From assembly GCA_964537315.1 (NCBI GenBank), contig CAZIAP010000004.1:14509-78508 (forward strand): a DNA stretch of 64,000 nt, in the 5' to 3' direction. The translations under genes were made by a program, and so were the position numbers. The notes under the pieces were generated by a model. The model saw only the letters and a program-made list of their open reading frames with translations, was not told where the DNA came from and ran no database searches. Origin of the DNA: an uncultured Gammaproteobacteria bacterium (GTDB lineage: Bacteria > Patescibacteriota > Microgenomatia > Levybacterales > GWA1-39-11). The first letter of the stretch is position 1. The number at the start of each line of letters is the position of its first letter. Of the stretch, positions 5,908 to 61,765 are shown in pieces.

Positions 5908-6011
5908 TACCTCCTCTCTTACTAAGTAAGCATTTACTAATGTGTGTTATAAGATTGCAAAGTAACTTGATAAACTCTAAACTCTAAATACTAATACCTA
6001 AATAATTTTAA

Positions 6012-12618: not shown

Positions 12619-13224
12619 TTACACATGCGCGAGCTTATGTGACATCTTCTCTTTTTTTGTCTTTAAGTATTTCTTATTTATAGGGTTGGGAAAAACCTCA
12701 ATTGGTACTTGCTCTACAACTTCAATACCATATCTTTCAAGCTGCTCTACTTTATCTGGATTGTTAGTTAGTAATCTTATTTTTTTCAAACCCAAGTCGT
12801 GAAGTATTCCAGCTGCAGTTTTATAGTCTCTGGCATCAACTGGTAAACCCAATTTCTCATTTGCTTCTACAGTATCGTAGCCAACCTCCTGCAATGCATA
12901 AGCTTTTATTTTGTTGGTTAGACCAATTCCTCTACCTTCCTGATTTAAGTACACTATAACTCCGCTGCCATTTTTTTGAATCTGCTCCATACTCTGTTTC
13001 AGTTGATCACCACAGTCACATTTCAATGAGAACAATATATCTCCTGTAACACACGATGAATGAAGACGAACTAACGTCTCATCATTTATAACACCCTTAA
13101 CCAAGGCAAAGTGTTCCTGATTGTCTGAGGTTTTGTAGATAATAATTTGAAATCTACCTAGCTTGGTAGGAAGAATAGTATGAGCTGTGCTTTTTAAACC
13201 TCTTACTGATTTTTGTTTTTTCAT
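12619..13224 (-). CDS. ribA: GTP cyclohydrolase II
   Basis: CDCG zinc motif, NQEGRGIGL and YL.TK...GH motif context; 201 aa. Confidence 0.8.
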   Translation of the reverse strand: MKKQKSVRGLKSTAHTILPTKLGRFQIIIYKTSDNQEHFALVKGVINDETLVRLHSSCVTGDILFSLKCDCGDQLKQSMEQIQKNGSGVIVYLNQEGRGIGLTNKIKAYALQEVGYDTVEANEKLGLPVDARDYKTAAGILHDLGLKKIRLLTNNPDKVEQLERYGIEVVEQVPIEVFPNPINKKYLKTKKEKMSHKLAHV

Positions 13225-13943
13225 TATTTGTACTCCCCATAATCCTCTGATTTTATATACAATGAATCCACACCAGCATCAGCCAATACATTTGAGAGAC
13301 TTGTTACCAGTCCTGTCGGTCCAGCAAGATAAAATATAGTGTTGCTAATGTCACCTACATGTTTTTTTATCATTTCCTCATTAATATAACCAGTTTCACC
13401 CTGCCACTTATCAGTGTCTTCCTGAGTCATCGTAGGAATGAATATGAAGTTCTTATTTTGCTGTGCTATCTTCTCCAGTTCTTCAAAAAAAGGTGCATCC
13501 TTGATCGTACGATTTGAGTAAAAAAGATAAATTTTTTGTGCTGAATTACTTGTAGCTGCTTGTCTGATCATACTAATAAATGGTGTAATTCCAATACCAC
13601 CAGACAAGAATACTACTGGTCTTGAAGTATCTTTAGGCAATGTCATTGATCCTCTAGGATTTATAATTTCTACCTCTAAACCTTCAGGAGCGTTCTTTAA
13701 TGTCTGTTTAAATGCGGAATTTCTAATTCGTGTAGCAAATCCAATTTCCTCTTCAGAAGGAATAGTGATAAACGAAAGTGTGCGATCGTTACCTTCATCG
13801 TCTGTTTGAGGAGGATTAATTAGTCTTACAGTAGGATGTTGACCTGGCTCATAAACTAAGCCTTCCGGTTTCTCAAAGTAAAAAGCCATTGTCCCATTTG
13901 CGACTTCTTCTTTTCTTATTAATTTAGATTTAAATTCAGCCAT
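13224..13943 (-). CDS. FAD/NAD(P)-binding oxidoreductase, ferredoxin-NADP reductase-like (single FNR module)
   Basis: RxFS-type FAD motif RTLSFITIPS, GGIGITPF NAD-binding glycine motif; paralog of 46386..47090. Confidence 0.75.
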   Translation of the reverse strand: MAEFKSKLIRKEEVANGTMAFYFEKPEGLVYEPGQHPTVRLINPPQTDDEGNDRTLSFITIPSEEEIGFATRIRNSAFKQTLKNAPEGLEVEIINPRGSMTLPKDTSRPVVFLSGGIGITPFISMIRQAATSNSAQKIYLFYSNRTIKDAPFFEELEKIAQQNKNFIFIPTMTQEDTDKWQGETGYINEEMIKKHVGDISNTIFYLAGPTGLVTSLSNVLADAGVDSLYIKSEDYGEYK

Positions 13944-29843: not shown

Positions 29844-30758
29844 TTATTGTGAGTCAATTACTGCTTTAAATGACTCAAAAGGTTGCGCTCCTACAATAGT
29901 GTTATCACCGATAATAAAGGTAGGAGTTCCCGTGATTCCTTTGCTTTTCCCTTCAGATTTGTCTTTCTCCACCTGAGCAGCAAACTGTTTTGTGTCTAAA
30001 CACTGAGAGAAATCATCACCATTTATAGAAAGTGCCGTAGCGTAATTTTTCATGATTTTATACACGTCTGACTCGCTTTTACCTGCCCACTCATTTTGTT
30101 TTATAAATAACTCATTATGGAACTGCCAAAACTTTCCTTGATTTGCTGCACACATTGCCGCATTATGCGCTGTTGGAGCTGCTTTATGGTTATTTAACGG
30201 GAAGTTTTTGAAAATCAGTTTTATTGTTCCTTTATCAAGGTACTCGGATTGAAGCTTAGGAAGAACCTCGTTAATAAACTTTGCGCAATATACACATTCA
30301 AATGAGTAATAAGCAACAACTGCTATCTCTGCATTAGGATCACCAAGCACAAAATTCTCTGCTGGAATTGATACATTTGGCACAGGTGTACTGCTTGGAG
30401 TCGCAGATGGAGATACCATTGATGTCGGTGACGGAGAAGCAGAAGGAGTGACAGTTACCCCATCGTTTCTTCCACCAATATTTTCACTCTGAACTTCTTC
30501 CTGCTCTTCGGGTTTAATGTTTTCGCTTTCTTCAGTTATTTCATCAATTACTTGATCCTCATCGCTTGAACCATTCAGCTGTATTCTGGCAATTCTTTGT
30601 TGCTCTTCGGCATCATTAACTATATTTTGACCAAAGAAATAAAATCCCGAGACCGCAAAAAGCCCCAGAAAAATAGCAATAATTGCAATCGACGTTCTAT
30701 AGTGGATACGAAGTAACAATTTTTTAAACAGTGATTTTTTTCTTTCCATAAGTGTCAA
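29844..30758 (-). CDS. DsbA-family thiol:disulfide oxidoreductase, membrane anchored with Pro/Ser/Thr linker
   Basis: CxxC site FECVYCAKF, thioredoxin fold, N-terminal TM, PSASPSPTS linker. Confidence 0.8.
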   Translation of the reverse strand: MTLMERKKSLFKKLLLRIHYRTSIAIIAIFLGLFAVSGFYFFGQNIVNDAEEQQRIARIQLNGSSDEDQVIDEITEESENIKPEEQEEVQSENIGGRNDGVTVTPSASPSPTSMVSPSATPSSTPVPNVSIPAENFVLGDPNAEIAVVAYYSFECVYCAKFINEVLPKLQSEYLDKGTIKLIFKNFPLNNHKAAPTAHNAAMCAANQGKFWQFHNELFIKQNEWAGKSESDVYKIMKNYATALSINGDDFSQCLDTKQFAAQVEKDKSEGKSKGITGTPTFIIGDNTIVGAQPFESFKAVIDSQ

Positions 30759-30917
30759 ATTATAGGATTATTAAGTAGACTTGTCAATGAGTATAATGAA
30801 CGCGCGTATTGATTGTATTTAACCTCATCTTACAGCTCATTTGTAAGTTTCGCAACAGAAAATACTTTACTAATCTCTAACATAAAACTTGCAAATAATC
30901 GCAATAATTATCACTGT

Positions 30918-31385
30918 ATGCGAATTTGCAGTCCTGATTTCGACAAAGGGGAACAGATCCCTCGTTCTTTTACATGTACAGGGGCAAACGTAAACCCTCA
31001 GCTGGAAATAAAAAATGCTCCAATGTCGACACGTTCATTTGTACTAGTAGTACTGGAGAAGTCAGAATCAGCAAGTATTGAGGTACGGTGGTTTGTGGTT
31101 AATATCCCGGCCAATGTTACAACTATTTACAGAAATTCAGTTCCCGACGGCGCAGTTGAAGCCATATCAGACAATAGCAAAACATATGAAGGTCCTTGTC
31201 CGATTTTTTTCAACGGACTTCACACTTTTATTTTCAGAGTTTATGCACTGGATAAAAACTTACAAATACCTGCCTCCGCATCCTATTGGGAAGTAAAGTC
31301 GCTAATTGAGAAACATACAATTGCGCAAGCTGAATTATGTGGCACATCCGAAGGAACCGCGTACAATACAAAACAGTCGATATAG
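30918..31385 (+). CDS. YbhB/YbcL (PEBP/RKIP) family protein; start moved to internal ATG
   Basis: PEBP core ...W.V.NIP...............EGPCP...H.F..YALD. Confidence 0.8.
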   Translation: MRICSPDFDKGEQIPRSFTCTGANVNPQLEIKNAPMSTRSFVLVVLEKSESASIEVRWFVVNIPANVTTIYRNSVPDGAVEAISDNSKTYEGPCPIFFNGLHTFIFRVYALDKNLQIPASASYWEVKSLIEKHTIAQAELCGTSEGTAYNTKQSI

Positions 31386-31400
31386 TCCCTCTTAATCTAG

Positions 31401-31514
31401 CTATGTTACAACAGGAAATTGCGTGATCACTGTACTGAGTAGGGCTACCAGCAATAAACCAAATAAGCCTGCAACAACTATCAATCCTTCCTTGATTTGA
31501 TCATCGTCACCCAT
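31401..31514 (-). CDS. possible 37-aa single-TM micro-protein within copper locus
   Basis: Manual translation MGDDDQIKEGLIVVAGLFGLLLVALLSTVITQFPVVT; speculative. Confidence 0.25.
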   Translation of the reverse strand: MGDDDQIKEGLIVVAGLFGLLLVALLSTVITQFPVVT

Positions 31515-31581
31515 ACAAAAGCTTATACTGAAGTAAAATAGGAAAAACTTAAACAGGAGGTAAGTATTGTTTAAGAGAGCT

Positions 31582-31797
31582 TTATTTTATTTGCTTGGAA
31601 GAATAACCCAGTTTTGCAACTATTTCCTGAAGTTGTGTAACATTTACTAAGTTTTCATCATACTCTACCTCAGTTGTTTGCTTTGCATAGCTAGTAGATG
31701 AACGTTTAACACCAATTATATCTTCAAACTCACCATCAATATTAAACGCGCAGCTTGTACAGTGCATACCTTCAATTTTCATTTTTATCTTTTTCAT
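31582..31797 (-). CDS. copZ: copper chaperone CopZ (HMA domain)
   Basis: GMHCTSCAFNI MxCxxC metal-binding motif. Confidence 0.85.
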   Translation of the reverse strand: MKKIKMKIEGMHCTSCAFNIDGEFEDIIGVKRSSTSYAKQTTEVEYDENLVNVTQLQEIVAKLGYSSKQIK

Positions 31798-31798
31798 A

Positions 31799-32923
31799 TT
31801 AAATTACTTGAATCACCCCCCTATACATTCCCATCGTGCACATAAATGGTATTTGTGTATTTTCGTTAGGTAGTGTAATTGTTATTGAGTCCTTATCTCC
31901 AACTCTAATGAATTTCTGATAATTATAGTAAGGAATAGCAAATGCAGCAGCGCATCCATATGCACCATCGTTGAATATATCTAAAGTAATTGTTGACCCT
32001 CTTTTGGCTGAGAATGAGTTAGGAGTATAACCTGTATCCTTTATGGAAATATTTATTCTGTCTCTAACCTGATTCTGACTCCCTTCTCCGGAAATATTGT
32101 TAAACGGATTAATATTTACTCCTGCCAAAGCAAAAGCATTATTTAAATTAAATATAGCTAGAAATGCGATCGCCACAGCAGCAAATTTAATAAATTTTGA
32201 ATGTAAAGATTGGCTGAGTTTTGTCGTAAAATACCCAAGAAGGAAAAAAACAGGTGAAGTACCGATTGTAAATGAAGCGAGAATTGCAGCTCCAATTAAG
32301 GGATTGCCTGAGGCGATAGCCAGAGCCATCATAGCTTGAGTTGTTCCACAAGGTATAAAAATCGTAAATCCACCCAGAATTATTGGCGCAAATAGATCAT
32401 CTTTCTTTGACTGCTTTCTGACGAAACGGGTTATAAATCGGGGTGGTTGAATAACAAAATATCTGAAAACAGGATGTAGATTTAACATGTTTGCTGCAGT
32501 TCCAAGCAAAAATACAGCAACTATTATTTGTAATATTGCCTGAACAGTAAGCGACATAGTTAGGAATGACCCCATCCAACCCAGAAGTAAACCTAAAAGT
32601 GAATAAGAGACAATTTTAGATCCAAGAAATGAAAGAATAGGTAATACATTATCCTTATTTTTTGATTTCGATTTTACTGCTGACTCAGCTCTTTGAACTA
32701 GTGTTGCAGCTAATAAGCCACCCTGAACGGCCATACAGGTAAGGCCACCTGTCAACAGTCCAGTCAGAAATATCGCAAAAAGACTCACAGATCCACCTGT
32801 TTCAACTGATGGTAAAGAGAAGTTGTATTCTAGCTGAAGGCTATACACAAATAAAACTACAATAAGCGCCAATAATCCTATGACTGCAATTTTCAAGGAA
32901 ACGGATGGACTATTTGATTTCAT
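31799..32923 (-). CDS. polytopic membrane protein (DsbD_2/TauE-like permease core) fused to C-terminal cupredoxin-like domain
   Basis: ~8 TM segments with GGLTCMAVQGG; C-terminal soluble domain ending FMCTMGMYRGVIQV resembling cupredoxin_1 C-terminus; sits between copA and copZ. Confidence 0.5.
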   Translation of the reverse strand: MKSNSPSVSLKIAVIGLLALIVVLFVYSLQLEYNFSLPSVETGGSVSLFAIFLTGLLTGGLTCMAVQGGLLAATLVQRAESAVKSKSKNKDNVLPILSFLGSKIVSYSLLGLLLGWMGSFLTMSLTVQAILQIIVAVFLLGTAANMLNLHPVFRYFVIQPPRFITRFVRKQSKKDDLFAPIILGGFTIFIPCGTTQAMMALAIASGNPLIGAAILASFTIGTSPVFFLLGYFTTKLSQSLHSKFIKFAAVAIAFLAIFNLNNAFALAGVNINPFNNISGEGSQNQVRDRINISIKDTGYTPNSFSAKRGSTITLDIFNDGAYGCAAAFAIPYYNYQKFIRVGDKDSITITLPNENTQIPFMCTMGMYRGVIQVI

Positions 32924-32924
32924 A

Positions 32925-35159
32925 TTAAATTTTTACTCGTTTCAGTAAAAGTGAATTTGTAACTACAGATACAGAACTGGATGCCATAGCGATGGATGCG
33001 AGAATTGGACTAAGTAATATTCCAAAAAACGGATATAACACACCCATCGCAACCGGAATTAATAGTACATTGTAGCCAAAAGCCCAAAACAAATTTAATT
33101 TTATAGTTCTCATCGTTTTTTGAGATAATTTTATTGCTTTTGCAACAGATCGTAAATCTTTGTTAAGCAGCGTAATATCAGCCGATTCAATTGCCACATC
33201 AGTGCCGCTCCCTATTGCAATACCTACATCCGCAGCTGCCAGTGCCGGAGCGTCATTTATACCGTCTCCCACCATAGCAACCTTTTTTCCAGATGCTTGT
33301 ATCTTCCTGACTTCATCTTCCTTCTGATCAGGCAAAACTTCCGCAAGCACTTTCTTAATTCCAAGTTTAGACGCAATAGCATTAGCTGCACGTGAATTGT
33401 CACCTGTTATCATAATTACGTCTATACCTCTTTTCATCAAAGCTGTAACTCCGGCTCTCGCTGATTCTTTAAGAGTGTCAGCAACTGCAATTAATCCTAC
33501 AAGTTTTTTATCCACTGCCAAAAGTATGACTGTCTTACCCTCTTTTTCTAGATTCTCAAGTTGTGTAACTGCATTATCGTAGGAAATTTTTTCTTTTTCC
33601 ATTAATCTCCTATTTCCCAATACTATCTCATACTTTTTGACTGTTCCTTTTACTCCGTGACCTGCAACAGACTGGAATTTATCTGCCCTATCAAGTTGTA
33701 TTTTTTTTGCTTGAGCTGCTTTTACGATTGCCTCAGCTAATGAGTGCTCTGATCCAACCTCAATTGATGCAGCTAATTTCAAAATATCTTCCTCACTTTT
33801 AATTTTTGATTTTTGACTTTTAATTTGTATAACATCTGTTACTTCAGGTTTTCCATGAGTAAGTGTGCCTGTTTTATCAAATATTACTGTGTTAATTTTA
33901 TTTGCAACTTCCAAACTTTGAGCATCTTTAATTAATATTCCATTTTCAGCACCTAATCCTGTTCCTACCATAATTGCTGTCGGTGTTGCCAAACCCATCG
34001 CGCATGGACAGGCAATTATGAGAACAGCAACCGTACTGAGCATCGCGTATATAAATGAAGGTTCTGGTCCGAATATATACCAAACTCCAAACGTAGCAAA
34101 TGCCAGCATAATTACGATGGGAACAAAATATGATGAGACTTTATCGGCAATTCGTTGAATCGGAGCCTTGGAACCTTGTGCCTCTTGTACGAGCTTAATA
34201 ATTTGTGCTAACACCGTATCATTGCCAACTGTAGTGGCTTTAAATAAAAAAGTTCCGGATTTATTGATAGTCGCTCCAACTACGGTATCTCCTTTTATTT
34301 TATCAACAGGTATACTTTCTCCGGTGATCATTGACTCGTCAATAGATGACTCCCCTTCTACAATTACGCCATCAACTGGTACTTTTTCTCCTGGTCTAAC
34401 TCTAATAAGATCACCTTTAACGACTTGTTCAATTGGCATATCGACTTCGTTACCATCACGGATGACTCTTGCAGTTTTTGCTTGCAAACCTACAAGCTTT
34501 GTTATTGCTTGACTCGTTCCCATTTTAGCCCTGGCTTCCATGTATCTCCCTAGTAAAATTAACCCTATGACTATTACTGACACATCAAAATATGGCATGA
34601 CCTCCATGCCTAGGTTACTTACAATACTAGGGAAAAAAATTACAAATACTGAGTACACGTAGGCAACGGTCGTACCTAACGCGACCAAAGTATCCATGTT
34701 CGCAGTACGATTCCTCAATGCAGGAATTGTTGCTTTATAAAACTCAAGTCCTGCCCAAAACTGAATTGGTGTTGCCAAAAGCATTTGTACAAAAAAGTTC
34801 CGTAATATTTGAGGTGCTGTATGCATTATTCCTAGAAAAGTACCCCATAAAATTAATACACCAACAATTAAACTGGCAATTACCTTAGTTCGAAGAGTTG
34901 ATAATTCTTTATTTTTTTCTTCTGAAAGTTTTTTCTCGTCTTTTTCTTCTTCAAGAGTATATCCTGTTTTTGATACTGACTCTGAAAGTTTTTCAGGACT
35001 ACTTACTTCCTTATCATATGTGACAGTAGCTTTAGAAGTTGCCAAATTTACCATAGCCTCTTTTACACCATTGGTTTTTTTTAACGATCGTTCTATTGTC
35101 ATTGCACATGAAGCACAACTCATTCCTTTCACTGAAAATGTTTGTTTTACAATATTCAT
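32925..35159 (-). CDS. copA: copper-translocating P1B-type ATPase
   Basis: N-terminal [18 protein letters not shown] transmembrane motif [20 protein letters not shown] phosphorylation site, GDGINDAP hinge. Confidence 0.95.
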
Positions 35160-35901: not shown

Positions 35902-37041
35902 ATGATACATACCAAAGATAAAAAGAGATTAATCAATTTTGGTAAAAAATTTAATTCACTCTCGAATAAGTTATCAGTCGGAACTCATACACTTACGCCG
36001 ATAAATTTTTCGGAAGAACGAGAGAAGTTTTTCTCGTCCAATACATATAACCCTATTTATCAATACTCACCCAACAATACCTCAGGTTTACATAAAGAGA
36101 TCCAGGCTCTAATTGAAGAATTGGATACGATTACTCTCCCCAACTCGCTTCGGTATTACTTCAGATCTGCGCTGGAAGCACTTTCTACAGATATTGATTT
36201 AATCGATGCAATTGGTACAGATAGGTTCGCCGAAATTGCCGCTGACATCTATCAGTACAACCAGATAAAAAGTGAGTCACTACTTCGTGAAGCCGCTCAT
36301 ATTTCGTTTAATGAACCCGGAAACTGCGAACTACAATCGGCGGAAGAAATGGCTGATAGTTTTCAAAAGTACATCGATCAACTTGGCTTAGACTACACTG
36401 TTACCATCGATACATTCAATGATCATATAATTCGAGTAGGATCCCGTAGTTTAATAGTTGGCTCTAAAGTCAGACGTTTCTGTAAAAATATCAACCGTCT
36501 AATTGTTCATGAAATCGAAAGTCATATTTTGCAACGTCATAATCTAAAAATGTCTGACAATCCATTGCTTAGAGTTATTCCCCGTCCACAAGTTTCATTG
36601 TGGGGTGAAGGTTTAGCAGTATATAACGAAATACATTCTGGAACAATCACACGAGGCGCATTTGAAACATATTATTATCGCTTGAAAGCAGTTGAAAATA
36701 TTAATCGTAGCTTTAGACAAATTTATAATCTTTTGACAGATTATGTCAGTCCTGAGAAAGCGTTTATGATCACGTATCGAGTAAAACGTGGTATGAAGGA
36801 GACTTACAATCCAGGAGGTTTCGCAAAAGATGCCTCATATTTATTGGGATATAAAAAGGTAAGTGAGTACATTCAGGATGGTGGAAATATTAAGTTTCTA
36901 TACACTTCGAAATATCCGCATATAGGAAAATTATTGCTTGAACACGAAATGCTTGAACAAAAACCAGTACTACTCCCCGCATATATGCACACAGCTAAAG
37001 CAACTAATAATTACTTTCCTACTTCTGCTCCTCTTATATAA
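35902..37041 (+). CDS. DUF1704 / QEGLA-motif putative metallopeptidase
   Basis: HExxH (VHEIESH) plus WGEGLAVYNE (QEGLA-like) motifs spaced as in TIGR02421/DUF1704. Confidence 0.7.
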   Translation: MIHTKDKKRLINFGKKFNSLSNKLSVGTHTLTPINFSEEREKFFSSNTYNPIYQYSPNNTSGLHKEIQALIEELDTITLPNSLRYYFRSALEALSTDIDLIDAIGTDRFAEIAADIYQYNQIKSESLLREAAHISFNEPGNCELQSAEEMADSFQKYIDQLGLDYTVTIDTFNDHIIRVGSRSLIVGSKVRRFCKNINRLIVHEIESHILQRHNLKMSDNPLLRVIPRPQVSLWGEGLAVYNEIHSGTITRGAFETYYYRLKAVENINRSFRQIYNLLTDYVSPEKAFMITYRVKRGMKETYNPGGFAKDASYLLGYKKVSEYIQDGGNIKFLYTSKYPHIGKLLLEHEMLEQKPVLLPAYMHTAKATNNYFPTSAPLI

Positions 37042-42290: not shown

Positions 42291-43418
42291 ATGAAACGTA
42301 CAGTAATATTTGGACTGATATTTGTTTTTGTAATTGGAATAACCTTGTTTCTCCGAGAGACCGACTACCTCAGCCGTCAGCAAGATATACCCACACTCCG
42401 AGAAATTAGCAATCAAGACTCGGCTGACCTCCCTCGACTTACTACCATTGCAGAAAACTTAGAAATACCTTGGGGATTAGTGTTTTTGCCTGATAATAAC
42501 CTTCTTGTAACAGAAAGACCTGGACGAGTTGTTCATATAAACCTGCAGTCAGGAAAGCAGACTCTAGTAGCAACTTTACCAGAAGTAGTACATATTGGTG
42601 AAGGAGGCCTTCTGGGAATAGAACTCCACCCAGAATTTGAAAGAAACAACTTTATTTACCTTTATTACACCTATCAAAACAATGGAAACAACACGCTCAA
42701 TCGCATAGTTAGAATGACATATGAGAACCAACAGCTTGATAATGAAACGATTATACTTGACCGTATTCCCGGCGCTTCAAACCATAACGGAGGGCAGATA
42801 AAGTTTGGTCCTGATAACTTTTTATATATCACTACAGGAGACGCCCAGATACCTAGCTCAGCTCAAAACATTCAATCACTAGCAGGAAAAATTTTGCGAG
42901 TATCCGATGATGGAAAACCGGCTCCCGGAAACCCATTTAATAACGAAGTGTACTCATACGGACATCGAAACCCTCAAGGCATTTGTTGGGATGAAAACGA
43001 TCAGATGTTTGCTACTGAGCACGGAAGATCAGGCGCTCAATCAGGACTTGATGAACTTAACTTAATAAGACCTGGAATCAACTACGGGTGGCCAGAAATT
43101 CAAGGAAACGAAACACATAATGAAATGCAGACTCCACTACTCAACAGTGGAACTACTACTTGGGCACCTGCAGGAGCTGTGTGTATAAACAACCAAATAT
43201 ATTTTGGAGGGCTAAGAGGAAACGCACTTTATGAAGCAGTAACTCAAGGCGATACTGTAGAGCTAAAGACACATCTTGACGGAGAGCTAGGACGTATCAG
43301 AGCAGTAATACTTGGACCTGATGAGATGCTATATATTTCTACCAGCAACCGTGACGGCCGCGGTACACCAAGTAGTGGGGATGATAAAATAATAAGAGTC
43401 AACCTAGAGAAGCTATAA
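42291..43418 (+). CDS. PQQ-dependent soluble sugar (glucose/sorbosone) dehydrogenase, beta-propeller
   Basis: N-terminal TM; LEIPWGLVFLPDNNLLVTERPGRV and GGLLGIELHP motifs of YliI/sGDH family. Confidence 0.85.
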   Translation: MKRTVIFGLIFVFVIGITLFLRETDYLSRQQDIPTLREISNQDSADLPRLTTIAENLEIPWGLVFLPDNNLLVTERPGRVVHINLQSGKQTLVATLPEVVHIGEGGLLGIELHPEFERNNFIYLYYTYQNNGNNTLNRIVRMTYENQQLDNETIILDRIPGASNHNGGQIKFGPDNFLYITTGDAQIPSSAQNIQSLAGKILRVSDDGKPAPGNPFNNEVYSYGHRNPQGICWDENDQMFATEHGRSGAQSGLDELNLIRPGINYGWPEIQGNETHNEMQTPLLNSGTTTWAPAGAVCINNQIYFGGLRGNALYEAVTQGDTVELKTHLDGELGRIRAVILGPDEMLYISTSNRDGRGTPSSGDDKIIRVNLEKL

Positions 43419-43543: not shown

Positions 43544-44101
43544 ATGCATAAATACCCTTTCATTATCCTGGCAGTCATCATCATAGTTTCAGTTTACTTA
43601 GTTCTCTTCGGAAACGTAGATACACCTCAAACAACAAAAAGTTCAGTTGTCACAGACTCAAGTCCCACAAACGAAGAATTCAGTGATTATACCGCGGCAT
43701 TTCTTGTAGTCACAAACGGATTGTCTCGTGATTTTTCAGCATCCAGATACCATAACTTATCACAGAGTGTTTATATCACATCTCAAAATCCCCAGATAGT
43801 TCATGTTCAAAAGCCAAATATAACCTGGCAGGATTTTTTCAGCACGTTACCTATGGGATTATCATCTAGCTGTTTAACTACCGGAACAGGTCAAAATTTT
43901 TGTGATGAACAGGGAGGATCACTCCGTTTCTTTTTAAATGGTAATGAAGCTCCCAGAGCATTAGAAGCAGTAATTCAGCCCAATGACAAATTATTAGTAA
44001 CCTTCGGTAATGCTTCTGACAACGAAATACAACTTCAGATCAAACGGATTGATGACCCACAGCCTGACGTTTCGTCAAAGGCTGAGAAAGAGGAAGAGTA
44101 A
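43544..44101 (+). CDS. membrane-anchored hypothetical protein
   Basis: N-terminal TM, 185 aa, no motif recognised. Confidence 0.45.
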   Translation: MHKYPFIILAVIIIVSVYLVLFGNVDTPQTTKSSVVTDSSPTNEEFSDYTAAFLVVTNGLSRDFSASRYHNLSQSVYITSQNPQIVHVQKPNITWQDFFSTLPMGLSSSCLTTGTGQNFCDEQGGSLRFFLNGNEAPRALEAVIQPNDKLLVTFGNASDNEIQLQIKRIDDPQPDVSSKAEKEEE

Positions 44102-45806
44102 AGAAAAAAGTTGAACCCTTATTTTCTTTTGATTCTACCCATATCTTCCCTTTATGTTCTTTTATTATGCTTGCCGATACATAGAGACCAATTCCCAAGC
44201 TTTGCTTATTACCATTATTCTCAACTTGATAGAATCTATCAAAAACTTTAGATTGTTCTTCTTTAGGAATTCCCTGACCAAAATCTTTCACGCTTATCAT
44301 CGCTTTTCCATCTTGGATTTTACTGGTAACTATCACTTTAGATTTTGATGGTGAGTACTTTAATGCATTGTTTACTAGGTTAGTAATCACTTGCATAACT
44401 CTTGTTTTATCTGCAAACACTTCTCTTTTCAAATTATTTTTCAAAACTATTTCCCTTTGAGGCTTTGTTTTTTGAAAGGTTTCTACTACCTCTTCAATTA
44501 CTTTTGCTAAATCAAGTTGCTCAGGATTTAATGTTATTCCTCCATTTCGTAACCGTGATAAATCAAGCAAATCATTTGTCAGTACAAGCATTCGATTTAC
44601 TTGATCCTGCAATTTTTTTGCCACAGTGTGCTCTGGCGTATTAGGTGAAATTTTTGCTGTTAAAATGTCAGCATAAAGTTTTATACTGGTAATAGGGGTT
44701 TTTAGCTCGTGGCTTGCCACACTGATAAACTCATCTTTGCTTTCTTCCCTCTTTTTCTCTTCACGAATATCTTTTACAACTACAGTCGCGCCTACTACTT
44801 TATGGTTCAGCTCAATTGGTGTAACACTTACTGATACCGGAATTTTTTTATGTTTACTTTTAATCATAAAGCTGGATGAGGTAAACTTTCTACCTGATTG
44901 TATTGATCTCAAAAACCTGTCTTCATCCACAGAGTTTTTAGATGAAATTAAAGTATGTACCTTTTTACCAACTACTTCAGTTGGGTGCCTTCCGATTAGT
45001 TCACCAAGCGCATTATTAGAATTCCCTATTCTTCCTTTAAGATTTACTGAAATAACACCATCACTGATACTAGAAAGTATTGTGTGCGCTTCAATATCAA
45101 ACAGCTCGTATCGTAATATTGCGTATCCAATGATAATACCCATGAAGGTAGTTAGCGGAACAGCAGCCGGGAAAATATAAATTTCAAACAATGGTAAAAC
45201 TCCGTCAGTAATTGAACCAAGTATGAGAGGTACAAGAATAGCAATAATAAGTAGTACTACCTGCTTTCTCTGTATGTAGTTTTTAACAGATCTATAATAA
45301 ACGATGAGTATACCGATCGATGCTACCATTAGAGACTCAAGCCAAAAAAGAAAGTATGAAAAATACTCACCTGGCCGCGAGTTATAACCCCATTGATTGA
45401 TCACTATGGCCTCTTGGCTATGATTATCTATTAAAAAAGTTGTCCAGGATAAATATAAAAATACAATTGAGGGTATAAAAACATACGCTGACACCCATAT
45501 TTTTTTTAAATAATCTAATTTCTTTGTAAAGGCCAGTGAGAATACAAAAAATACTGAGGGAAGGGTAACGTACCCTAGAGCAGATATTCTATCGACACGC
45601 TCGTACAAATCCTGATGCAAACCCATCCAATTTATAATAATTTGGGGCACACTCCAGACAGTAATCGCAACTATAAATAAAGCAAACGAAACTAACACAG
45701 GAGAGCGCACAGGCCGACGAATTAATAGATATAGTAATGCTAAGTTTGTGATCGCGGCCGCGATAAGCAAAGCAGTATATATTTCAGCCATAAATTCATG
45801 ACACAA
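44040..45806 (-). CDS. sensor histidine kinase with N-terminal 7-TM sensor, PAS-like linker, HisKA and HATPase_c
   Basis: H-box SVASHELKTPITSIKLYADIL, N/G1/G2 boxes (LVNNALKYS, DFGQGIP, GLGL); no adjacent cognate regulator. Confidence 0.85.
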   Translation of the reverse strand: MCHEFMAEIYTALLIAAAITNLALLYLLIRRPVRSPVLVSFALFIVAITVWSVPQIIINWMGLHQDLYERVDRISALGYVTLPSVFFVFSLAFTKKLDYLKKIWVSAYVFIPSIVFLYLSWTTFLIDNHSQEAIVINQWGYNSRPGEYFSYFLFWLESLMVASIGILIVYYRSVKNYIQRKQVVLLIIAILVPLILGSITDGVLPLFEIYIFPAAVPLTTFMGIIIGYAILRYELFDIEAHTILSSISDGVISVNLKGRIGNSNNALGELIGRHPTEVVGKKVHTLISSKNSVDEDRFLRSIQSGRKFTSSSFMIKSKHKKIPVSVSVTPIELNHKVVGATVVVKDIREEKKREESKDEFISVASHELKTPITSIKLYADILTAKISPNTPEHTVAKKLQDQVNRMLVLTNDLLDLSRLRNGGITLNPEQLDLAKVIEEVVETFQKTKPQREIVLKNNLKREVFADKTRVMQVITNLVNNALKYSPSKSKVIVTSKIQDGKAMISVKDFGQGIPKEEQSKVFDRFYQVENNGNKQSLGIGLYVSASIIKEHKGKIWVESKENKGSTFFFTLPLSQPLTKRQAVGHQSV

Positions 45807-46385: not shown

Positions 46386-47090
46386 TTAATACCCTGCGAA
46401 GTCTTCTCTATTAATCTTATCATCATTTACACCCAGAGATATAAGCATATTTTCTATTTCATGACCCATATTTTCAGGACCAACTATATAAAACAGAGCA
46501 GATTTCATATCCGGTACATATTGGTTTATTATCTCTACATTGATCCGACCCTGAAAACCTGGCCAATTTTTGTCTTGTGACATATTATGTATAACCTTTA
46601 AGTTAGTAAGGTTTTCTTCAAGCGCCTCTAATTCATCAAAATAAGGTGTGCTGTCTTTTAACTTATTAGAATAAAAAAGAGTTACTGAATTCTCTTTTCC
46701 TGAGTCTTTCATCCACCTCATCATGCTCATAAAAGGGTTTATGCCTATTCCTCCTGCAATAAATACCAGGGGAATATCAGTACTTTCCGGAAAAACTAAA
46801 TCTCCCTCTGGACTGCTTACATCTATCTGACCACCTAACGGTAGGGCATGTAGCTCTTTTTTAAACCCTGATTCTCTTAAACGGGTAGCGACTGAAATTT
46901 TATTTTTCTCTGCAGGAGAACTGGCAATAGTAAAATATCTGCGTGATCCTTGATAGTCAGGGAATTTTGGATTTTTAAAGGTTAAGAATACGTACTGACC
47001 TGCCTGAAACAATATTGGTTCTGATAATTCAAAAGTATATTCAAAAGTTTCAACACACAGTTCTCTTTTATTTATCAATGACCCTACCAT
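46386..47090 (-). CDS. FAD/NAD(P)-binding FNR-like oxidoreductase (paralog of 13224..13943)
   Basis: RYFTIASSP FAD motif, GGIGINPF NAD motif; start codon overlaps stop of zwf-gnd fusion. Confidence 0.75.
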   Translation of the reverse strand: MVGSLINKRELCVETFEYTFELSEPILFQAGQYVFLTFKNPKFPDYQGSRRYFTIASSPAEKNKISVATRLRESGFKKELHALPLGGQIDVSSPEGDLVFPESTDIPLVFIAGGIGINPFMSMMRWMKDSGKENSVTLFYSNKLKDSTPYFDELEALEENLTNLKVIHNMSQDKNWPGFQGRINVEIINQYVPDMKSALFYIVGPENMGHEIENMLISLGVNDDKINREDFAGY

Positions 47091-49480
47091 TACTTTTGAC
47101 TTTTGATTTTTGAGTTTTGACTTTTTATACTGTGCCCTCCAAACTGGTTTCTCAGAGTACTTAATATTTTTCCAGTATAGCTTGGATTTTTTTCTGACTC
47201 TATTCTGAATTGTAATGACTCTTCAATTATCTTGGTTTTTACTTTTAATTCTCTTGCTGCTTCAATCGTCCACGCACCCTCTCCAGTGTGAGCAACTGAG
47301 CCTGAAATTTCAGAAAGATCTTCTCCATAAATTTGCAAACCATTGCGTAACCAACCGATAAGCCGTGATTCAATTACACTTCCGTGATTATATACTTCAG
47401 CAACTTTCGTCAGATCAAGATCATATTTTGACTCTTTTAAGACTGTAAAACCTTCTGCAATTGCTTGCATCATTCCATATTCGATACCGTTATGAACCAT
47501 TTTGACAAAGTGACCTGCTCCTGCACCTTCAAAATGTTCAACTCCTTCGCTTACTGCGATGTCTGTATATAACGGAAGAAGTTCTTCATAGGATTCACGT
47601 GACCCACCCACCATTAGGCAAGCTCCATTTCTAGCACCACCTGGTCCACCTGATACACCAACATCAACAAAATTAATTCTCTCTTTTTCCAGAACTTTCG
47701 CACGTTTCTGTGAGTTTTTATACAATGAGTTTCCAGCATCAATCACAGTATCTCCTTTTTCAAGATACGGCAAAATACCATCACCGCTTAAGAGAGAGTC
47801 CAGAGCGTCTCCTTCAGGCAACATAACCCAGATTATCCTTGGTCCGTCTAATTTTTGCGCTAATTCCTGCAAGGAGTATGCTCCTTTTACTCCCTGTTCT
47901 TCAAAGATTTTAGTAACTTCGCTTGTTCTGTTATATGCAACTACTTCCCAACCTTTTTCGATAAGCCTGGATGCTATATTCCCACCCATTTTTCCTAGAC
48001 CTATGATACCGATCTGTTTTTTAAATTTAGGTGCCAAAGGAATTGCATCTATATATAAAGAGTCTTCAACTGGTTCAAATGTTCGTTTTTTATAGCTTTT
48101 AAGCGGCACTAAATTTTTCTGCCAGGAAAGCCAAATAGGGTCAGTAAATCTCCACATTGCTTTTATTTCATCAGTACTTACAAATAAAAGCTGGTTGCCA
48201 TAAATACAATCAAGTAACAGTTTTTCATACTCTTCTACATACTGTACACGGTCTGTTACATCACGATAATAAAAATTCAAAACTCCGGGAGCAATTCCAC
48301 CATCAAGTCCAGGTTTCTTATTCCAGAAATGGATATTAATCGTCTCTGTCGGCTCAATCCCAATCACGATTTTATTCTGATTATGCTCACCAGGCGGACA
48401 CATACACGGCTCAGGATGCTTTAGTGTTATGACAATTTCTTTGATCTGCTCTGCCATCGATTTACCGCTTTCAAAAGTAATTGGAATATTAGAATAACGA
48501 GGATGTGTAATACTTGTTTTTATCTTAAAGTAAGTTTCGGTTTGTGATTTAGGATCTACTCCTTTTATAGACTTATATCCTTCGTACTGTGCTCTATATG
48601 TATTGTTTTTTATCTGCTCTTCGCTCATCACGGGTAGATAATTTAAAATTTCTGCCCTCTTTTTGCGAACTTGCTCAGGCGAGTTTTCTTTTGGATGTTC
48701 CATGAGAATAAGAGCCAGCATCTGAAGCAAATGATTCTGCCCCACATCCCGCAGTGCGCCTACACCATCATAAAAATCACCACGGTTCTCTACACCCATC
48801 GTTTCGTACAGCTTGAGATGAATACTTTCGATCAATTGATTATTCCATGATTGCTCAAACAGATTATTTGAAAACCTAAAGTTTAAAATATTTTGCAGCA
48901 TCTCTTTTGCCAGATAATGATCAATGCGGTATATTTGTTCTTCCTTAAAAAGCGTACCAAGCATCGTATCCAGCTCTTCTGCAGTTTTCAGGTCTTTTCC
49001 AAACGGTTTTTCAACCAGAACTCTAGTCCAACCCTCTTCAGGACTGCATGGCTCCGTAAGTCCGGAATCAGATAAGTTCTGGAAAATTGATTTATAGTAC
49101 TCTGGAGGAACTGCCAAATAGAATAGCTTATTTGCGCACACATTCCACTGCTTGTCCGCACGACCCAGTGTAACAGCGAGATCTTTATAACTTGCAAAAT
49201 CCTCAAAGTCTCCTGACTGATAAAAAATATGCTGCAAGAACTTTGGAAGATGTTCTTTATTTTCTTCAAAATCCTTCTGCTTTTTGAGTACCGTGGTGAT
49301 ATGCTGACGAAACTCTTCCTCAGTCAATTTTCGTCTAGCAAAACCATAGATTTTGATCATTTGTGGAAGCTTGCCTGCGATAAAGAGGTGAAAGAGAGCC
49401 GGGGCAATTTTTTTAGCTGTAAGATCACCAGTCGCACCAAAAATAACAAATATTGTTGGAAGATTGTGCTTGGTGTTCAC
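47090..49480 (-). CDS. zwf-gnd: bifunctional fusion: glucose-6-phosphate 1-dehydrogenase (N) + short-form 6-phosphogluconate dehydrogenase (C)
   Basis: N-terminal GATGDLT Rossmann and RIDHYLAKE G6PD active-site peptide; C-terminal IGLGKMGGNIA, GVSGGPGGARNG, HFVKMVHNGIEYG motifs of decarboxylating 6PGDH; 796 aa single ORF. Confidence 0.85.
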   Translation of the reverse strand: MNTKHNLPTIFVIFGATGDLTAKKIAPALFHLFIAGKLPQMIKIYGFARRKLTEEEFRQHITTVLKKQKDFEENKEHLPKFLQHIFYQSGDFEDFASYKDLAVTLGRADKQWNVCANKLFYLAVPPEYYKSIFQNLSDSGLTEPCSPEEGWTRVLVEKPFGKDLKTAEELDTMLGTLFKEEQIYRIDHYLAKEMLQNILNFRFSNNLFEQSWNNQLIESIHLKLYETMGVENRGDFYDGVGALRDVGQNHLLQMLALILMEHPKENSPEQVRKKRAEILNYLPVMSEEQIKNNTYRAQYEGYKSIKGVDPKSQTETYFKIKTSITHPRYSNIPITFESGKSMAEQIKEIVITLKHPEPCMCPPGEHNQNKIVIGIEPTETINIHFWNKKPGLDGGIAPGVLNFYYRDVTDRVQYVEEYEKLLLDCIYGNQLLFVSTDEIKAMWRFTDPIWLSWQKNLVPLKSYKKRTFEPVEDSLYIDAIPLAPKFKKQIGIIGLGKMGGNIASRLIEKGWEVVAYNRTSEVTKIFEEQGVKGAYSLQELAQKLDGPRIIWVMLPEGDALDSLLSGDGILPYLEKGDTVIDAGNSLYKNSQKRAKVLEKERINFVDVGVSGGPGGARNGACLMVGGSRESYEELLPLYTDIAVSEGVEHFEGAGAGHFVKMVHNGIEYGMMQAIAEGFTVLKESKYDLDLTKVAEVYNHGSVIESRLIGWLRNGLQIYGEDLSEISGSVAHTGEGAWTIEAARELKVKTKIIEESLQFRIESEKNPSYTGKILSTLRNQFGGHSIKSQNSKIKSQK

Positions 49481-49570
49481 TCACATACTATACCAAATAT
49501 GAACTTACAGGACAAGAAAGCAAACAATGTTCTATATCCTGGAATGTAAAATTCTGTCTTTACTACGAGA

Positions 49571-50011
49571 TTATTTACGAGAAGAACGAAGCGCAAGCAT
49601 ACCTGCAAGGGAGATTAATGCAAGATTTTTGATCATGTACTGTCCTTCAAGGGTAGGATTCAAGAATGACTCCCATGTCATATTAGGAAGAAGTAACACT
49701 GGCATCATAGTTGCAACCGCATGAAGCAATACAACGCCAAACATAATTTTTGAGTATTTAGGGAAAAGGATAAATAGACCAATCATCATCTCTGAAAATC
49801 CGAGAAAAAGGATAAAGTATTCGAACGGCACAAAAGGCAAAGTTTTGTCGAGTAACGCTGCAACAATTTCGTTTGCGGAGCTAATAGTAAATATCTTAGT
49901 TGCGCCAAACCAAAAGTATATAAGAAATAGTGAAAAACGCGCAAAAGGAGAAATTAATTCTGACAAATTCACATCAAACCATTTCTCGTATTTTTGAATA
50001 AATTCTCTCAT
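49571..50011 (-). CDS. small polytopic membrane protein (DoxX-like)
   Basis: 4 hydrophobic helices, 146 aa. Confidence 0.45.
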   Translation of the reverse strand: MREFIQKYEKWFDVNLSELISPFARFSLFLIYFWFGATKIFTISSANEIVAALLDKTLPFVPFEYFILFLGFSEMMIGLFILFPKYSKIMFGVVLLHAVATMMPVLLLPNMTWESFLNPTLEGQYMIKNLALISLAGMLALRSSRK

Positions 50012-59201: not shown

Positions 59202-60245
59202 CTAAATTCCTTTTACGTGTCTATCAAAAAACTCAAGAGAACGCTGTATTGCAGTATTAAAATTATGACTAATATTATGATCGTCTCCCGTATATTCATA
59301 GTACTCTACTGTTTTTCCGACGGACTTTAGTTGCTGATCAAGATTTTGAGAAAATGCCACAGGCACTGAATCGTCAGCCGTTCCGTGGTGGATTTGTACA
59401 GGTCCTGAGATATCTGCTAAGTAGTTATTGGCAGACAGTGTTTTCCAAAATGGGTCCTGATCATTCGGTTCACCGTATTCTTGTAATAATAAACCTCTCC
59501 ACCCTCTCGCTCTACGTGCAGCATCTGATTGAGGATCAGACGATCTTCTGCGCCAATTATTAATAAGATCTGGATACGATGCAACAACCCCAGCCCAGAT
59601 TACACCTGCTTTAATATCATCTCGTACCACCATGCTTCGCAATGTAATGTGTCCACCCATCGAATGTCCCCAAAAACCTATCCTGTTAGGGTCTGCATCC
59701 GAGTGTCTCTTTATAGAAGCAAGTGCATTGAGCACATCAATAGTATAGCCATTTGAACCATACCCGCCTGAGGCAGTACCTTCAGAATTACCGTGTCCAC
59801 GATAATCAGATTTAATCGTAATATACCCATTACGGGCAAATGTGTCTTGGTAGGCGACGTATCTTTCGTTAGTACGATACTCTGCAGGAGGAATATAGCC
59901 ATGATTAAAAACTATCACTGGCCATCCAGAGGGTGGCCTCTGTCCATTGGGAATAGTTAGCAATGAAAAGATTTTTAACCCTTCGGATTTATAGGACGCA
60001 ATGTAACGGCTATAATTTGATCCAGACTCAAGCTCCTGTTCTATAACTATGTCACTTCCGGTATACTCCCCGTTGCGAAGTGCTTCGATCGAAAGCGGAT
60101 GTGGAGGGATTGATTTATCTATCAGTCCACCTTCGTTTTCGTCATTAAACTCAGTTGATGGAGATAATATCTTTTGCTGTGTTAGAAAATATAGTGTACC
60201 TGCTGCAACAATGACAAATAAAACTAAACCTAGCTTAAGTTTCAT
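59202..60245 (-). CDS. membrane-anchored alpha/beta hydrolase, paralog family A
   Basis: HGYIPPAEY...RGHGNSEG, GHSMGG; ~45% identical to 23032..24147 by eye. Confidence 0.8.
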   Translation of the reverse strand: MKLKLGLVLFVIVAAGTLYFLTQQKILSPSTEFNDENEGGLIDKSIPPHPLSIEALRNGEYTGSDIVIEQELESGSNYSRYIASYKSEGLKIFSLLTIPNGQRPPSGWPVIVFNHGYIPPAEYRTNERYVAYQDTFARNGYITIKSDYRGHGNSEGTASGGYGSNGYTIDVLNALASIKRHSDADPNRIGFWGHSMGGHITLRSMVVRDDIKAGVIWAGVVASYPDLINNWRRRSSDPQSDAARRARGWRGLLLQEYGEPNDQDPFWKTLSANNYLADISGPVQIHHGTADDSVPVAFSQNLDQQLKSVGKTVEYYEYTGDDHNISHNFNTAIQRSLEFFDRHVKGI

Positions 60246-60643: not shown

Positions 60644-61765
60644 CTATTCCTCATCCGCTTCAAACTGTTCTACATAAAACTCTATACTTTTCTCAACAGC
60701 TTGTTCCCATGAACCTAGGTTAAAGTTGTGATTCTCACCCGGGTATTTATAGTACTCAATATCCTTGTCCATCTCCTCCATTGAGCTTGCAAATTGATCA
60801 CTCCACCGAACCGGAACAGCCTCATCAGCCACTGCCTGGTGAAGCTGAATTGGCGCGTTTATCCATTCATAATACTTGCTCGGTGAATAGTTAAATACAT
60901 CATACTCTGTCTCAAAATCTGCAACTACTTTACGTAGTGCTTTTCCTTCATCTTCAAACTCATCAGTAAAGTACAATATGCTATATGGGAACGGCTTGGT
61001 TACCGGATTCCATAAAACAGTAGGTATCCGTTTGCCTGTTATTGCAAGAACCGAGAGCGAGATGTGTCCACCGTTACTATGCCCCCATATTCCAACCTTG
61101 GCAGTATCTGCCTCTATTCCTGCAATTGGACTGAAGCTTTCGATTTGACGTGTAGTACCGGTTGGAGTAATTGTTGCCTGACTCTCTCCAAATTTTTTAA
61201 GCGCATCAACAAGACTCGGAACTGATTCAAGCATTGTTAGAGCTGTTGGATAAGTCTGTAATCTATCCTCAATTGACCCCTCCGCACCTGAGTCTGATTC
61301 TCCAAAACCTAAAAAGTCTGGTGCAAGAGTAATATATCCATTACGTGCGAATTCTTCCGCAGTCCTGCGTGTGCCTTCTCCTGTAGTAAAGTTTTCTCGC
61401 GATACAAACCCCCTAAACATCACTATAATAGGATAATTTCCAGGCTCTTTTGGAATATTAATTAGACCACTTACCTTTTTATCACTCTCTGCGTTGAGTA
61501 AGTCACCACTTACTGTATATGTAAATATAAACGAGGCAAAATCAGGGTCATCTTTTATTTGTTTACCTATTTCAATTGAACTAGGTCGAATATCTGTGGA
61601 ACTCAAGCTTTCAAAAGAATACTTTTCAAGAGGTTTTTCTGCGATCTCATCAACTTTCTGAGATATTGGTGTGGCTATATCACTACTGGCTAGAAACTTA
61701 AAGATTGAAAATCCAACAATTCCGACAAGCAAGACGATAATAAGAATAATTACTAACTTTCGCAC
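60644..61765 (-). CDS. membrane-anchored alpha/beta hydrolase (third member of cluster)
   Basis: N-terminal TM; GHSNGG nucleophile elbow, C-terminal HNF. Confidence 0.75.
   Translation of the reverse strand: MRKLVIILIIVLLVGIVGFSIFKFLASSDIATPISQKVDEIAEKPLEKYSFESLSSTDIRPSSIEIGKQIKDDPDFASFIFTYTVSGDLLNAESDKKVSGLINIPKEPGNYPIIVMFRGFVSRENFTTGEGTRRTAEEFARNGYITLAPDFLGFGESDSGAEGSIEDRLQTYPTALTMLESVPSLVDALKKFGESQATITPTGTTRQIESFSPIAGIEADTAKVGIWGHSNGGHISLSVLAITGKRIPTVLWNPVTKPFPYSILYFTDEFEDEGKALRKVVADFETEYDVFNYSPSKYYEWINAPIQLHQAVADEAVPVRWSDQFASSMEEMDKDIEYYKYPGENHNFNLGSWEQAVEKSIEFYVEQFEADEE

Follow-up and report, generated by a model that had tools for sequence, protein, structure and literature searches.

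We found that a single gene in the 64,000-nucleotide stretch of contig CAZIAP010000004.1 studied here (the whole stretch is hereafter called the window), from an uncultured bacterium placed by GTDB in the Patescibacteriota, encodes in one reading frame both glucose-6-phosphate dehydrogenase (the zwf product, G6PD) and a short-form decarboxylating 6-phosphogluconate dehydrogenase (6PGDH, the product of gnd). These are the enzymes of the two steps that yield NADPH in the oxidative pentose phosphate pathway (PPP). The fusion is a conserved protein family that occurs mostly in Patescibacteria, also known as the candidate phyla radiation (CPR), and the window gene is an ordinary member of it. We consider it probable that the protein is a bifunctional Zwf-Gnd enzyme supplying pentose phosphate and NADPH, likely with NADP+ at both steps, and that the family goes back to one fusion event between a zwf gene and a gnd gene downstream of it.

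The first-pass annotation of the window, which was made from the sequence, had described a complete G6PD followed in frame by a short-form 6PGDH, and our analysis bears this description out. Translation confirmed one open reading frame (ORF) of 796 amino acids that starts with GTG, and the motifs GATGDLT, EKPFG, RIDHYLAKE, IGLGKMGGNIA, GGPGGARNG, and HFVKMVHNGIEYG were all found in it. In the Pfam scan, G6PD_N (PF00479, residues 12-197, E = 1.6e-61, 208.6 bits), G6PD_C (PF02781, residues 200-474, E = 3.8e-78, 263 bits), NAD_binding_2 (residues 489-642, E = 1.2e-44), and 6PGD (residues 656-765) were placed on the same chain, which upholds the assignment of the C-terminal half to 6PGDH. As the match to 6PGD (PF00393) is confined to profile positions 1-116 of 290, this half belongs to the short form. 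The curated cut-offs of NCBIfam were passed on both sides: the fused protein scored 465.7 bits with the zwf model TIGR00871 (cut-off 400.6), and residues 489-788 scored 338.9 bits with the gnd_rel model TIGR00872 (cut-off 297.2) and 353.9 bits with the NADP-dependent subfamily NF007161 (cut-off 271), the latter being the top NCBIfam match of the 6PGDH half. With the catalytic residues kept as well, G6PD (residues ~9-475) and 6PGDH (residues 489-788) are both complete on one polypeptide.

Both halves look catalytically intact when compared across 116-123 fused proteins. In the G6PD half, K158 (in EKPFG), H188 and K192 (in RIDHYLAKE), and H250 (in QNHLLQ) are invariant, and the Rossmann residues G15-L20 as well as D187 are present and either invariant or at least 90% conserved. 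The sole deviation from the G6PD motifs is Ala for Gly in RIDHYLAKE (instead of RIDHYLGKE), which is typical of the clade. In the 6PGDH half, N584, S610, K660, H663, N664, and E667 are invariant, and so is the 6PGDH-specific signature HFVKMVHNGIEYG. We take these six residues to be the counterparts of K183 and E190 (the catalytic Lys/Glu) and of S128, H186, N187, and N102 (the substrate-binding set) in the sheep enzyme. For the cofactor, an Arg pair (R49-R50) stands at the 2'-phosphate position of the G6PD half in 114 of the 123 fused proteins. The 6PGDH half of the window protein has N517-R518-T519, and N-R-T/S is found there in 102 of the 123; NAD-preferring solved short-form 6PGDHs have D-R-D or D-H-D at the matching positions. 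To judge from these motifs, NADP+ is most likely the cofactor of both halves.

An AlphaFold2 model of the fused protein, computed from 116 sequences, is a confident two-enzyme model (mean pLDDT 89.1, pTM 0.78). In Foldseek searches, the G6PD half matched solved G6PDs with TM-scores of 0.82-0.89 (normalised to the target). The closest solved structures to the 6PGDH half were short-form 6PGDHs (6vpb, 10gw/6xeq, 8ihe, and 4e21). The 6PGDH half of the window protein differs from 6vpb, 6xeq, 8ihe, and 4e21 in that it does not have their insertion of about 20-30 residues. The searches of solved structures found none with both enzymes in one chain. The linker between the enzymes is ordered in the model (pLDDT 81-97) and forms two short helices; its sequence is variable, and its length is constrained, the distance from Y463 to G494 being 29-32 residues in 95 of the 123 fused proteins. 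The chain ends in a Lys/Ser/Gln tail of low complexity, KSQNSKIKSQK; its coding sequence is an A-rich repeat (47090-47130, minus strand) just before the TAATG overlap with the next gene, and residues 791-796 are predicted to be disordered (pLDDT <50).

The same fusion was then sought in related genomes, as the first-pass annotation had proposed, and it recurs widely. An identical 796-aa protein was assembled from the read sets SRR7082966 and SRR7082976 and is present in one 104.8-kb NCBI contig. All of the 120 best matches among 5.8 billion proteins are 765-834 aa long, contain all four domains, and show 55-100% identity; those with a name come from Levybacteria, Roizmanbacteria, Harrisonbacteria, Portnoybacteria, Taylorbacteria, and Parcubacteria, with one bin labelled Woesearchaeota. 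At least 21 non-redundant loci with a single ORF over both enzymes were collected by scans of a genome collection and of metagenomes together with targeted look-ups; the scans are arbitrary samples rather than censuses and give no basis for frequencies. Among 50%-identity representatives, an exhaustive search gave about 13 clusters of full-length fused proteins, the most distant at 37% identity; the named ones belong to Woesebacteria, the Microgenomates group, the Patescibacteria group, and Minisyncoccia. The contigs that carry fused genes span 28-68% GC, and one of them is binned as Gammaproteobacteria. This suggests either that the fusion has spread beyond low-GC Patescibacteria or that some of the bins are wrong. 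The architecture had been called unusual for bacteria; this holds for cultivated bacteria, and zwf and the short gnd are separate genes in the other phyla sampled, but within Patescibacteria the fusion is the common state.

The only published precedent for a G6PD-6PGDH fusion that we found is a diatom protein, Phaeodactylum tricornutum 54663 (Kroth et al. 2008, PMC2173943; Stover et al. 2011, PMC3148214). It resembles the window protein at the level of architecture only, both enzymes being on one predicted polypeptide. The diatom fusion is eukaryotic and cytosolic, has been reported for a single species and its closest relatives, and has a disputed gene model, and the genome also encodes a 6-phosphogluconolactonase (6PGL). 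As of 2011, Stover et al. (PMC3148214) had seen no second example of this kind in nr. In the open-access literature, we found no description of a bacterial or CPR G6PD-6PGDH fusion; Jaffe et al. (2020) described the oxidative PPP as patchy in CPR and mentioned no fusion. The bacterial family is abundant in public data and under-annotated, and no published description of it was found in that literature. The fused proteins are publicly labelled with one activity each, as 'glucose-6-phosphate dehydrogenase' or as '6-phosphogluconate dehydrogenase'; in P0180, P0185, and other clusters, NCBI mostly uses the former label and IMG mostly the latter.

Other fusions involving G6PD are known. The G6PD::6PGL-type enzymes, which include Plasmodium GluPho, the Giardia/Trichomonas proteins, and metazoan H6PD, and which arose independently several times, likewise join G6PD to another enzyme of the oxidative PPP. 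Their partner is the lactonase of the second step, whereas the partner in the window protein is a second dehydrogenase, that of the third step; no Glucosamine_iso (PF01182) domain was detected on the window protein by Pfam at E <= 0.01. Compared with stand-alone Zwf (TIGR00871) and short-form Gnd (TIGR00872/NF007161), each half of the window protein is full-length with intact catalytic residues. The stand-alone genes are often neighbours, mostly with gnd preceding zwf, but remain separate, whereas in the window they form one chain with zwf first.

The G6PD lineage of the window protein is further distinguished by four Cys residues (C115, C145, C359, and C361), which were absent from all of the 35 outgroup G6PDs sampled. 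C359 and C361 lie in a Cys/His loop, H355-x3-C359-x-C361-x4-H366, which takes the place of a canonical G6PD loop in alignments to solved G6PDs and is thus not an insertion. The complete pattern, CCHCCH, is present in 107 of the 123 fused proteins, and in P0051, P0088, and L003 C359 and C361 have been lost together with both His residues. We considered the cluster as a mark of the fused state and rejected this, because the four Cys also occur in unfused members of the clade; the cluster marks the G6PD lineage, fused or unfused. The four-Cys (+ His) site may either bind a metal or act as a redox switch through its thiols.

The arrangement of zwf and gnd in other genomes is informative about the origin of the fusion. 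In the other phyla sampled, zwf and the short gnd are usually neighbours yet separate, and gnd mostly comes first; a few Bacilli and a metagenome-assembled genome of Mycobacterium have zwf followed by gnd, again as separate genes. A Moraniibacteriota genome (L004) has an unfused zwf followed by gnd with a 12-nt gap. In neighbour-joining trees of each half, which are approximate and have no bootstrap support, the fused proteins form one clade, with L004 at or near its base. This pattern fits one fusion of an adjacent zwf-gnd pair, in that order, within the Patescibacteria lineage, as far as the sequences and trees indicate. The fused state is predominant but reversible within the clade.

In the proposed reaction sequence, the N-terminal G6PD would convert glucose-6-phosphate to 6-phosphoglucono-delta-lactone, the lactone would be hydrolysed spontaneously or by some other activity, and the C-terminal short-form 6PGDH would convert 6-phosphogluconate to ribulose-5-phosphate by oxidative decarboxylation. 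If both steps use NADP+, the yield would be 2 NADPH per glucose-6-phosphate. The benefit of the fusion most probably lies in keeping the two steps that give NADPH at a fixed 1:1 co-expression and in one place, within a genome that has been streamlined. Direct channelling is unlikely, since the lactone has to be hydrolysed between the two active sites. The NADPH would then be spent on thiol and oxidative-stress defence and, in this genome, also by a co-translated FNR-like flavoprotein described below.

The absence of a nearby lactonase gene had been noted in the first-pass annotation and extends to the other loci: lactonases of the Glucosamine_iso and YbhE-type families were not detected among the ORFs of the 64-kb window by profile search, and no lactonase gene lies beside the fused gene at any sampled locus. 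At three loci (L092, L094, and L095) the fusion is in an operon with genes for RpiB, Rpe, transketolase, and transaldolase, which is a full PPP set with no lactonase. We propose as a hypothesis, based on the window and the sampled flanks, that the fused enzyme works independently of a lactonase. As a separate observation, the window contains paralogous alpha/beta-hydrolase genes with matches of the dienelactone-hydrolase/Peptidase_S9 type (23032-24147, 59202-60245, and 60644-61765, all on the minus strand, and at ~41.4-42.3 kb).

Certain kinds of gene recur beside the fusion at the other loci. A peroxiredoxin gene is adjacent to the fusion at L087 and L098, and a pyridine-nucleotide disulfide reductase gene at L089 and L103. 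Genes for DsbD/CcdA and thioredoxin-like proteins are near the fusion at L086, L088, L089, and L095, those for MsrA/MsrB at L086 and L096, and that for Ni-SOD at L088; in the window, MsrB is encoded about 5.8 kb from the fusion. Glycolytic or gluconeogenic genes are found nearby at L086, L087, and L089. The recurrence of redox and PPP neighbours supports a function in NADPH and pentose supply, particularly for thiol-based redox defence. Two further small genes were seen at these loci. A hydrophobic ORF of 69 aa (5795-6004 in both L088 and L089), 77% identical between the Harrisonbacteria and the Parcubacteria locus, shares 4 nt with the start of the fused gene; it matches no Pfam family, and the window lacks it. 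A gene for a 152-aa protein resembling dual-specificity phosphatases (DSPc/PTP) consistently accompanies DsbD_TM close to the fused gene, at L088 (8373-8831, where its start overlaps the fusion stop) and L089 (3261-3719); given the thiol-redox context, its product may be a Cys enzyme of the arsenate-reductase or rhodanese-like kind and not a phosphatase acting on proteins.

Several points weigh against the bifunctional NADPH-supplying reading. The activity is read from sequence and predicted structure across all members of the family. Post-translational cleavage has been suggested for the diatom fusion proteins, and fused enzymes can be cleaved. Hydrolysis of the lactone is required between the two active sites, yet no lactonase was found in the window or the flanks, and at least one patescibacterium has been reported to encode a 6PGL. 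TIGR00872 carries the name NAD(+)-dependent, so that the case for NADP+ use by the 6PGDH half comes from the sequence motif only. The context associations come from about 20 sampled loci, which is a small sample, and are descriptive. In addition, the genes are unfused in three clade members (L004, L101, and L105, the latter two with real stop and start codons) and zwf occurs alone in three others (L091, L100, and L109); therefore, the fusion is not essential.

The last point bears on whether the fusion has any kinetic or regulatory meaning, as it could be a neutral by-product of the loss of intergenic regions in streamlined genomes. The unfused, ancestor-like state has a gap of only 12 nt, several losses or splits of the fusion have occurred in the clade, the linker sequence is not conserved, and the need for hydrolysis in between speaks against channelling. 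Against neutrality, the fused state has been kept down to 37% identity and over the whole range of 28-68% GC, the linker is constrained in length, and the model gives it an ordered structure within a defined overall arrangement. On balance, we regard a purely neutral fusion as unlikely, though it is the strongest of the alternatives considered.

The coordinates of the fused gene, its parts, and the neighbouring features are listed in Table 1.

Table 1. Features of the fused zwf-gnd gene and its neighbourhood in the window
Feature	Position	Strand	Basis
Fused zwf-gnd gene, 796 aa, G6PD + short-form 6PGDH	47090..49480	-	One ORF, GTG start; Pfam and NCBIfam
G6PD half, residues 12-474 (G6PD_N 12-197, G6PD_C 200-474)	48059..49447	-	Pfam, NCBIfam, conserved residues, Foldseek
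Cys/His loop H355-x3-C359-x-C361-x4-H366 within G6PD_C, residues 355-366	48383..48418	-	Co-conserved with C115 and C145
Inter-enzyme linker, residues 475-488 (~13 residues)	48017..48058	-	Variable sequence, constrained length
Short-form decarboxylating 6PGDH half, residues 489-788	47117..48016	-	NCBIfam, solved-structure matches, invariant residues
Flavoprotein of the FNR superfamily, one module, 234 aa, translationally coupled to the fusion	46386..47090	-	FAD_binding_6 + NAD_binding_1
Membrane-anchored, predicted type-1 (blue) copper protein, 158 aa	45873..46349	-	Copper-bind + Cupredoxin_1, Shine-Dalgarno sequence
7TM-PAS histidine kinase, 66 nt downstream of the cupredoxin gene	44040..45806	-	HisKA_7TM, PAS, HisKA, HATPase_c
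Promoter-like site, TG-extended TTGTCC-17-TATAGT, immediately upstream of the GTG start	49487..49515	-	Consensus scan only
Polytopic membrane protein, 146 aa, upstream of the fusion	49571..50011	-	69%-identical ortholog at the same position in L083

The fused gene is the first of three closely spaced genes on the same strand. As had been pointed out in the first-pass annotation, its stop overlaps the start of the FNR-like gene: the TAA and the ATG share one base in TAATG (47092-47088). The cupredoxin gene begins 36 nt past the stop of the FNR-like gene, and no terminator was predicted between the three genes. The overlap, the short gap, and the lack of a predicted terminator make co-transcription of the three genes plausible. 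A membrane-anchored cupredoxin gene does come next, as had been claimed, but its start is most likely the ATG at 46349 (158 aa), which has the Shine-Dalgarno sequence GGGAGG 8 nt before it, and not the GTG at 46373 (166 aa). The promoter-like site upstream of the fusion is weak evidence because such sites were not enriched in the scan (22 found against 20.2 expected in shuffles). The 146-aa membrane protein encoded further upstream matched DoxX below the Pfam threshold (E ~0.05); by BLASTP it showed no similarity to the true DoxX protein encoded upstream of the fusion in L092, and we treat a relationship to DoxX as a hint only.

The FNR-like protein is a soluble two-domain module with no membrane segment and a conserved C-terminal Tyr, and its AlphaFold2 model has a pLDDT of 94.8. 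It passed no NCBIfam cut-off. The best match of the same architecture was Fre (NF005963), and like E. coli Fre the protein is a two-domain FAD/NAD(P)H module of ~233 aa with no extra cofactor domain, with a TM-score of 0.82-0.84 to the Fre structure 1qfj and an R-x-F-T/S flavin motif read from its sequence. Unlike Fre, it scored only 72.9 bits against the cut-off of 230 and has the conserved C-terminal Tyr. Its fold is about equally near to the modules of flavohaemoglobin, NqrF, b5R, SpNOX, and Fre, and the fold search does not identify its electron acceptor. Only 57 homologs were found, the named ones being from Patescibacteria, and some of them are extended at the N-terminus by membrane or ferric-reductase-type regions (PF03116, PF08022). 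The window holds one more FNR-like gene of a single module (13224..13943, minus strand, 239 aa), 35% identical to the one above, and its start/stop overlap with the gene for GTP cyclohydrolase II (RibA, 12619..13224, minus strand) hints at a link between the FNR-like proteins and flavin metabolism.

The product of the third gene is, from its sequence, a type-1 blue copper protein with an N-terminal membrane anchor and the full predicted ligand set. It scored 41.1 bits with PF00127 (against 21.2), and the ligands His, Cys, His, and Met, in MHDW and C-x4-H-x2/4-M, are conserved in the ortholog of L083. Elsewhere in the window lies a copper/thiol cluster (29844-35159, minus strand). It encodes a P1B ATPase of the CopA type that includes an HMA domain (32925..35159), an abutting 374-aa protein with a DsbD_2 membrane domain and a cupredoxin-like domain without type-1 copper ligands (31799..32923, minus strand), and then a DsbA/Thioredoxin_4 protein (29844..30758, minus strand). 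Near the fused gene cluster, a membrane-anchored PQQ-type glucose/sorbosone dehydrogenase beta-propeller is encoded (42291-43418, plus strand; GSDH, E = 8e-81), an extracytoplasmic sugar-oxidising enzyme that is unexpected in a genome thought to have no respiratory chain. A protein of 379 aa (35902-37041, plus strand) matches PF08014, the microtubule-associated tyrosine carboxypeptidase (MATCAP) family (E = 3.9e-30), here in a bacterial genome.

The first-pass annotation had joined the three gene products into a dedicated electron-transfer chain, in which NADPH from the fusion would reduce the FNR-like flavoprotein and the electrons would end in the extracytoplasmic cupredoxin. The TAATG overlap, the 36-nt gap with its strong Shine-Dalgarno sequence on one strand and with no predicted terminator, and the complete copper ligand set speak for this proposal, as do the membrane and PF03116/PF08022 extensions of some FNR-like homologs. 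The trio and the upstream membrane protein are also syntenic in L083, whose fusion is 83% identical, and an FNR-like ortholog hints at a neighbouring arrangement in a second relative, that of the 85%-identical fusion. However, the association is limited to these relatives of at least 83% identity, and the pair of FNR-like and cupredoxin genes is absent from the other 18 fused loci sampled; L090 has an FNR-like gene, but in the opposite orientation and only 28% identical. In addition, membrane segments are lacking in the FNR-like protein while the cupredoxin domain is external, and the cluster encodes no heme or Fe-S membrane conduit and no other redox carrier that spans the membrane. In its fold, the flavoprotein is equally close to modules with different acceptors, and the presence of the CopA, DsbD_2-cupredoxin, and DsbA cluster in the genome suggests that the cupredoxin may serve copper handling rather than respiration. 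Thus, the proposed chain is not supported by this evidence, and we consider it quite unlikely. The FNR-like protein is treated here as one more NADPH consumer beside an NADPH source, and its link to the cupredoxin as conjectural.

A further alternative concerns the C-terminal half, which could be a 6PGDH that depends on NAD+ or a beta-hydroxyacid dehydrogenase of another kind; the protein would then not generate NADPH at both steps. Besides the name of TIGR00872, its best equivalog, several solved short-form 6PGDHs prefer NAD+, Asp is found at position 517 in ~6% of the fused sequences, and there are weak NCBIfam matches to HIBADH and tartronate semialdehyde reductase models. The HIBADH-type models, however, score far under their cut-off (85 against 292 bits), the 6PGDH-specific HFVKMVHNGIEYG does not vary, N517-R518-T519 of the window protein resembles NADP-dependent 6PGDHs, and NADP-dependent NF007161 is the top NCBIfam match of this half. 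With these findings, we regard this alternative as very unlikely, slightly more so than the electron-transfer chain.

Finally, in other bacteria and a few clade members, separate zwf and gnd genes lie side by side, only ~12-45 nt apart, and a one-base error could in principle join such a pair, but an assembly or sequencing error that erased the stop between two genes is effectively refuted by the identical ORF in independent assemblies, by the fused state of all 120 best matches and at least 21 loci from unrelated samples, by the conserved linker length, and by the spread of fused genes over 28-68% GC.

Beyond the bifunctional Zwf-Gnd enzyme itself, a more far-reaching picture can be drawn, to which we give little credence at present. 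In it, the protein would be a self-sufficient, lactonase-independent oxidative PPP module, the lineage-specific Cys/His site would serve as a thiol switch or hold a metal centre, and would speed lactone turnover or tie NADPH production to thiol redox state, and the flavoprotein would wire the module to reduction of the extracytoplasmic blue-copper protein although the organism has no respiratory chain.

The existence of this family has consequences for the reading of patescibacterial genomes. As each fused protein is annotated with a single activity, pathway reconstructions will wrongly score the oxidative PPP as incomplete in these genomes. The fused enzyme is also a natural test case for the dispensability of 6-phosphogluconolactonase, and, as artificial G6PD-6PGDH pairs have been built for cofactor regeneration, a natural fusion could interest enzyme engineers. 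Patescibacteria have a minimal metabolism, and their source of NADPH and their survival of oxidative stress are poorly understood. A conserved single-chain enzyme for both NADPH-yielding steps of the PPP offers a concrete and testable answer.

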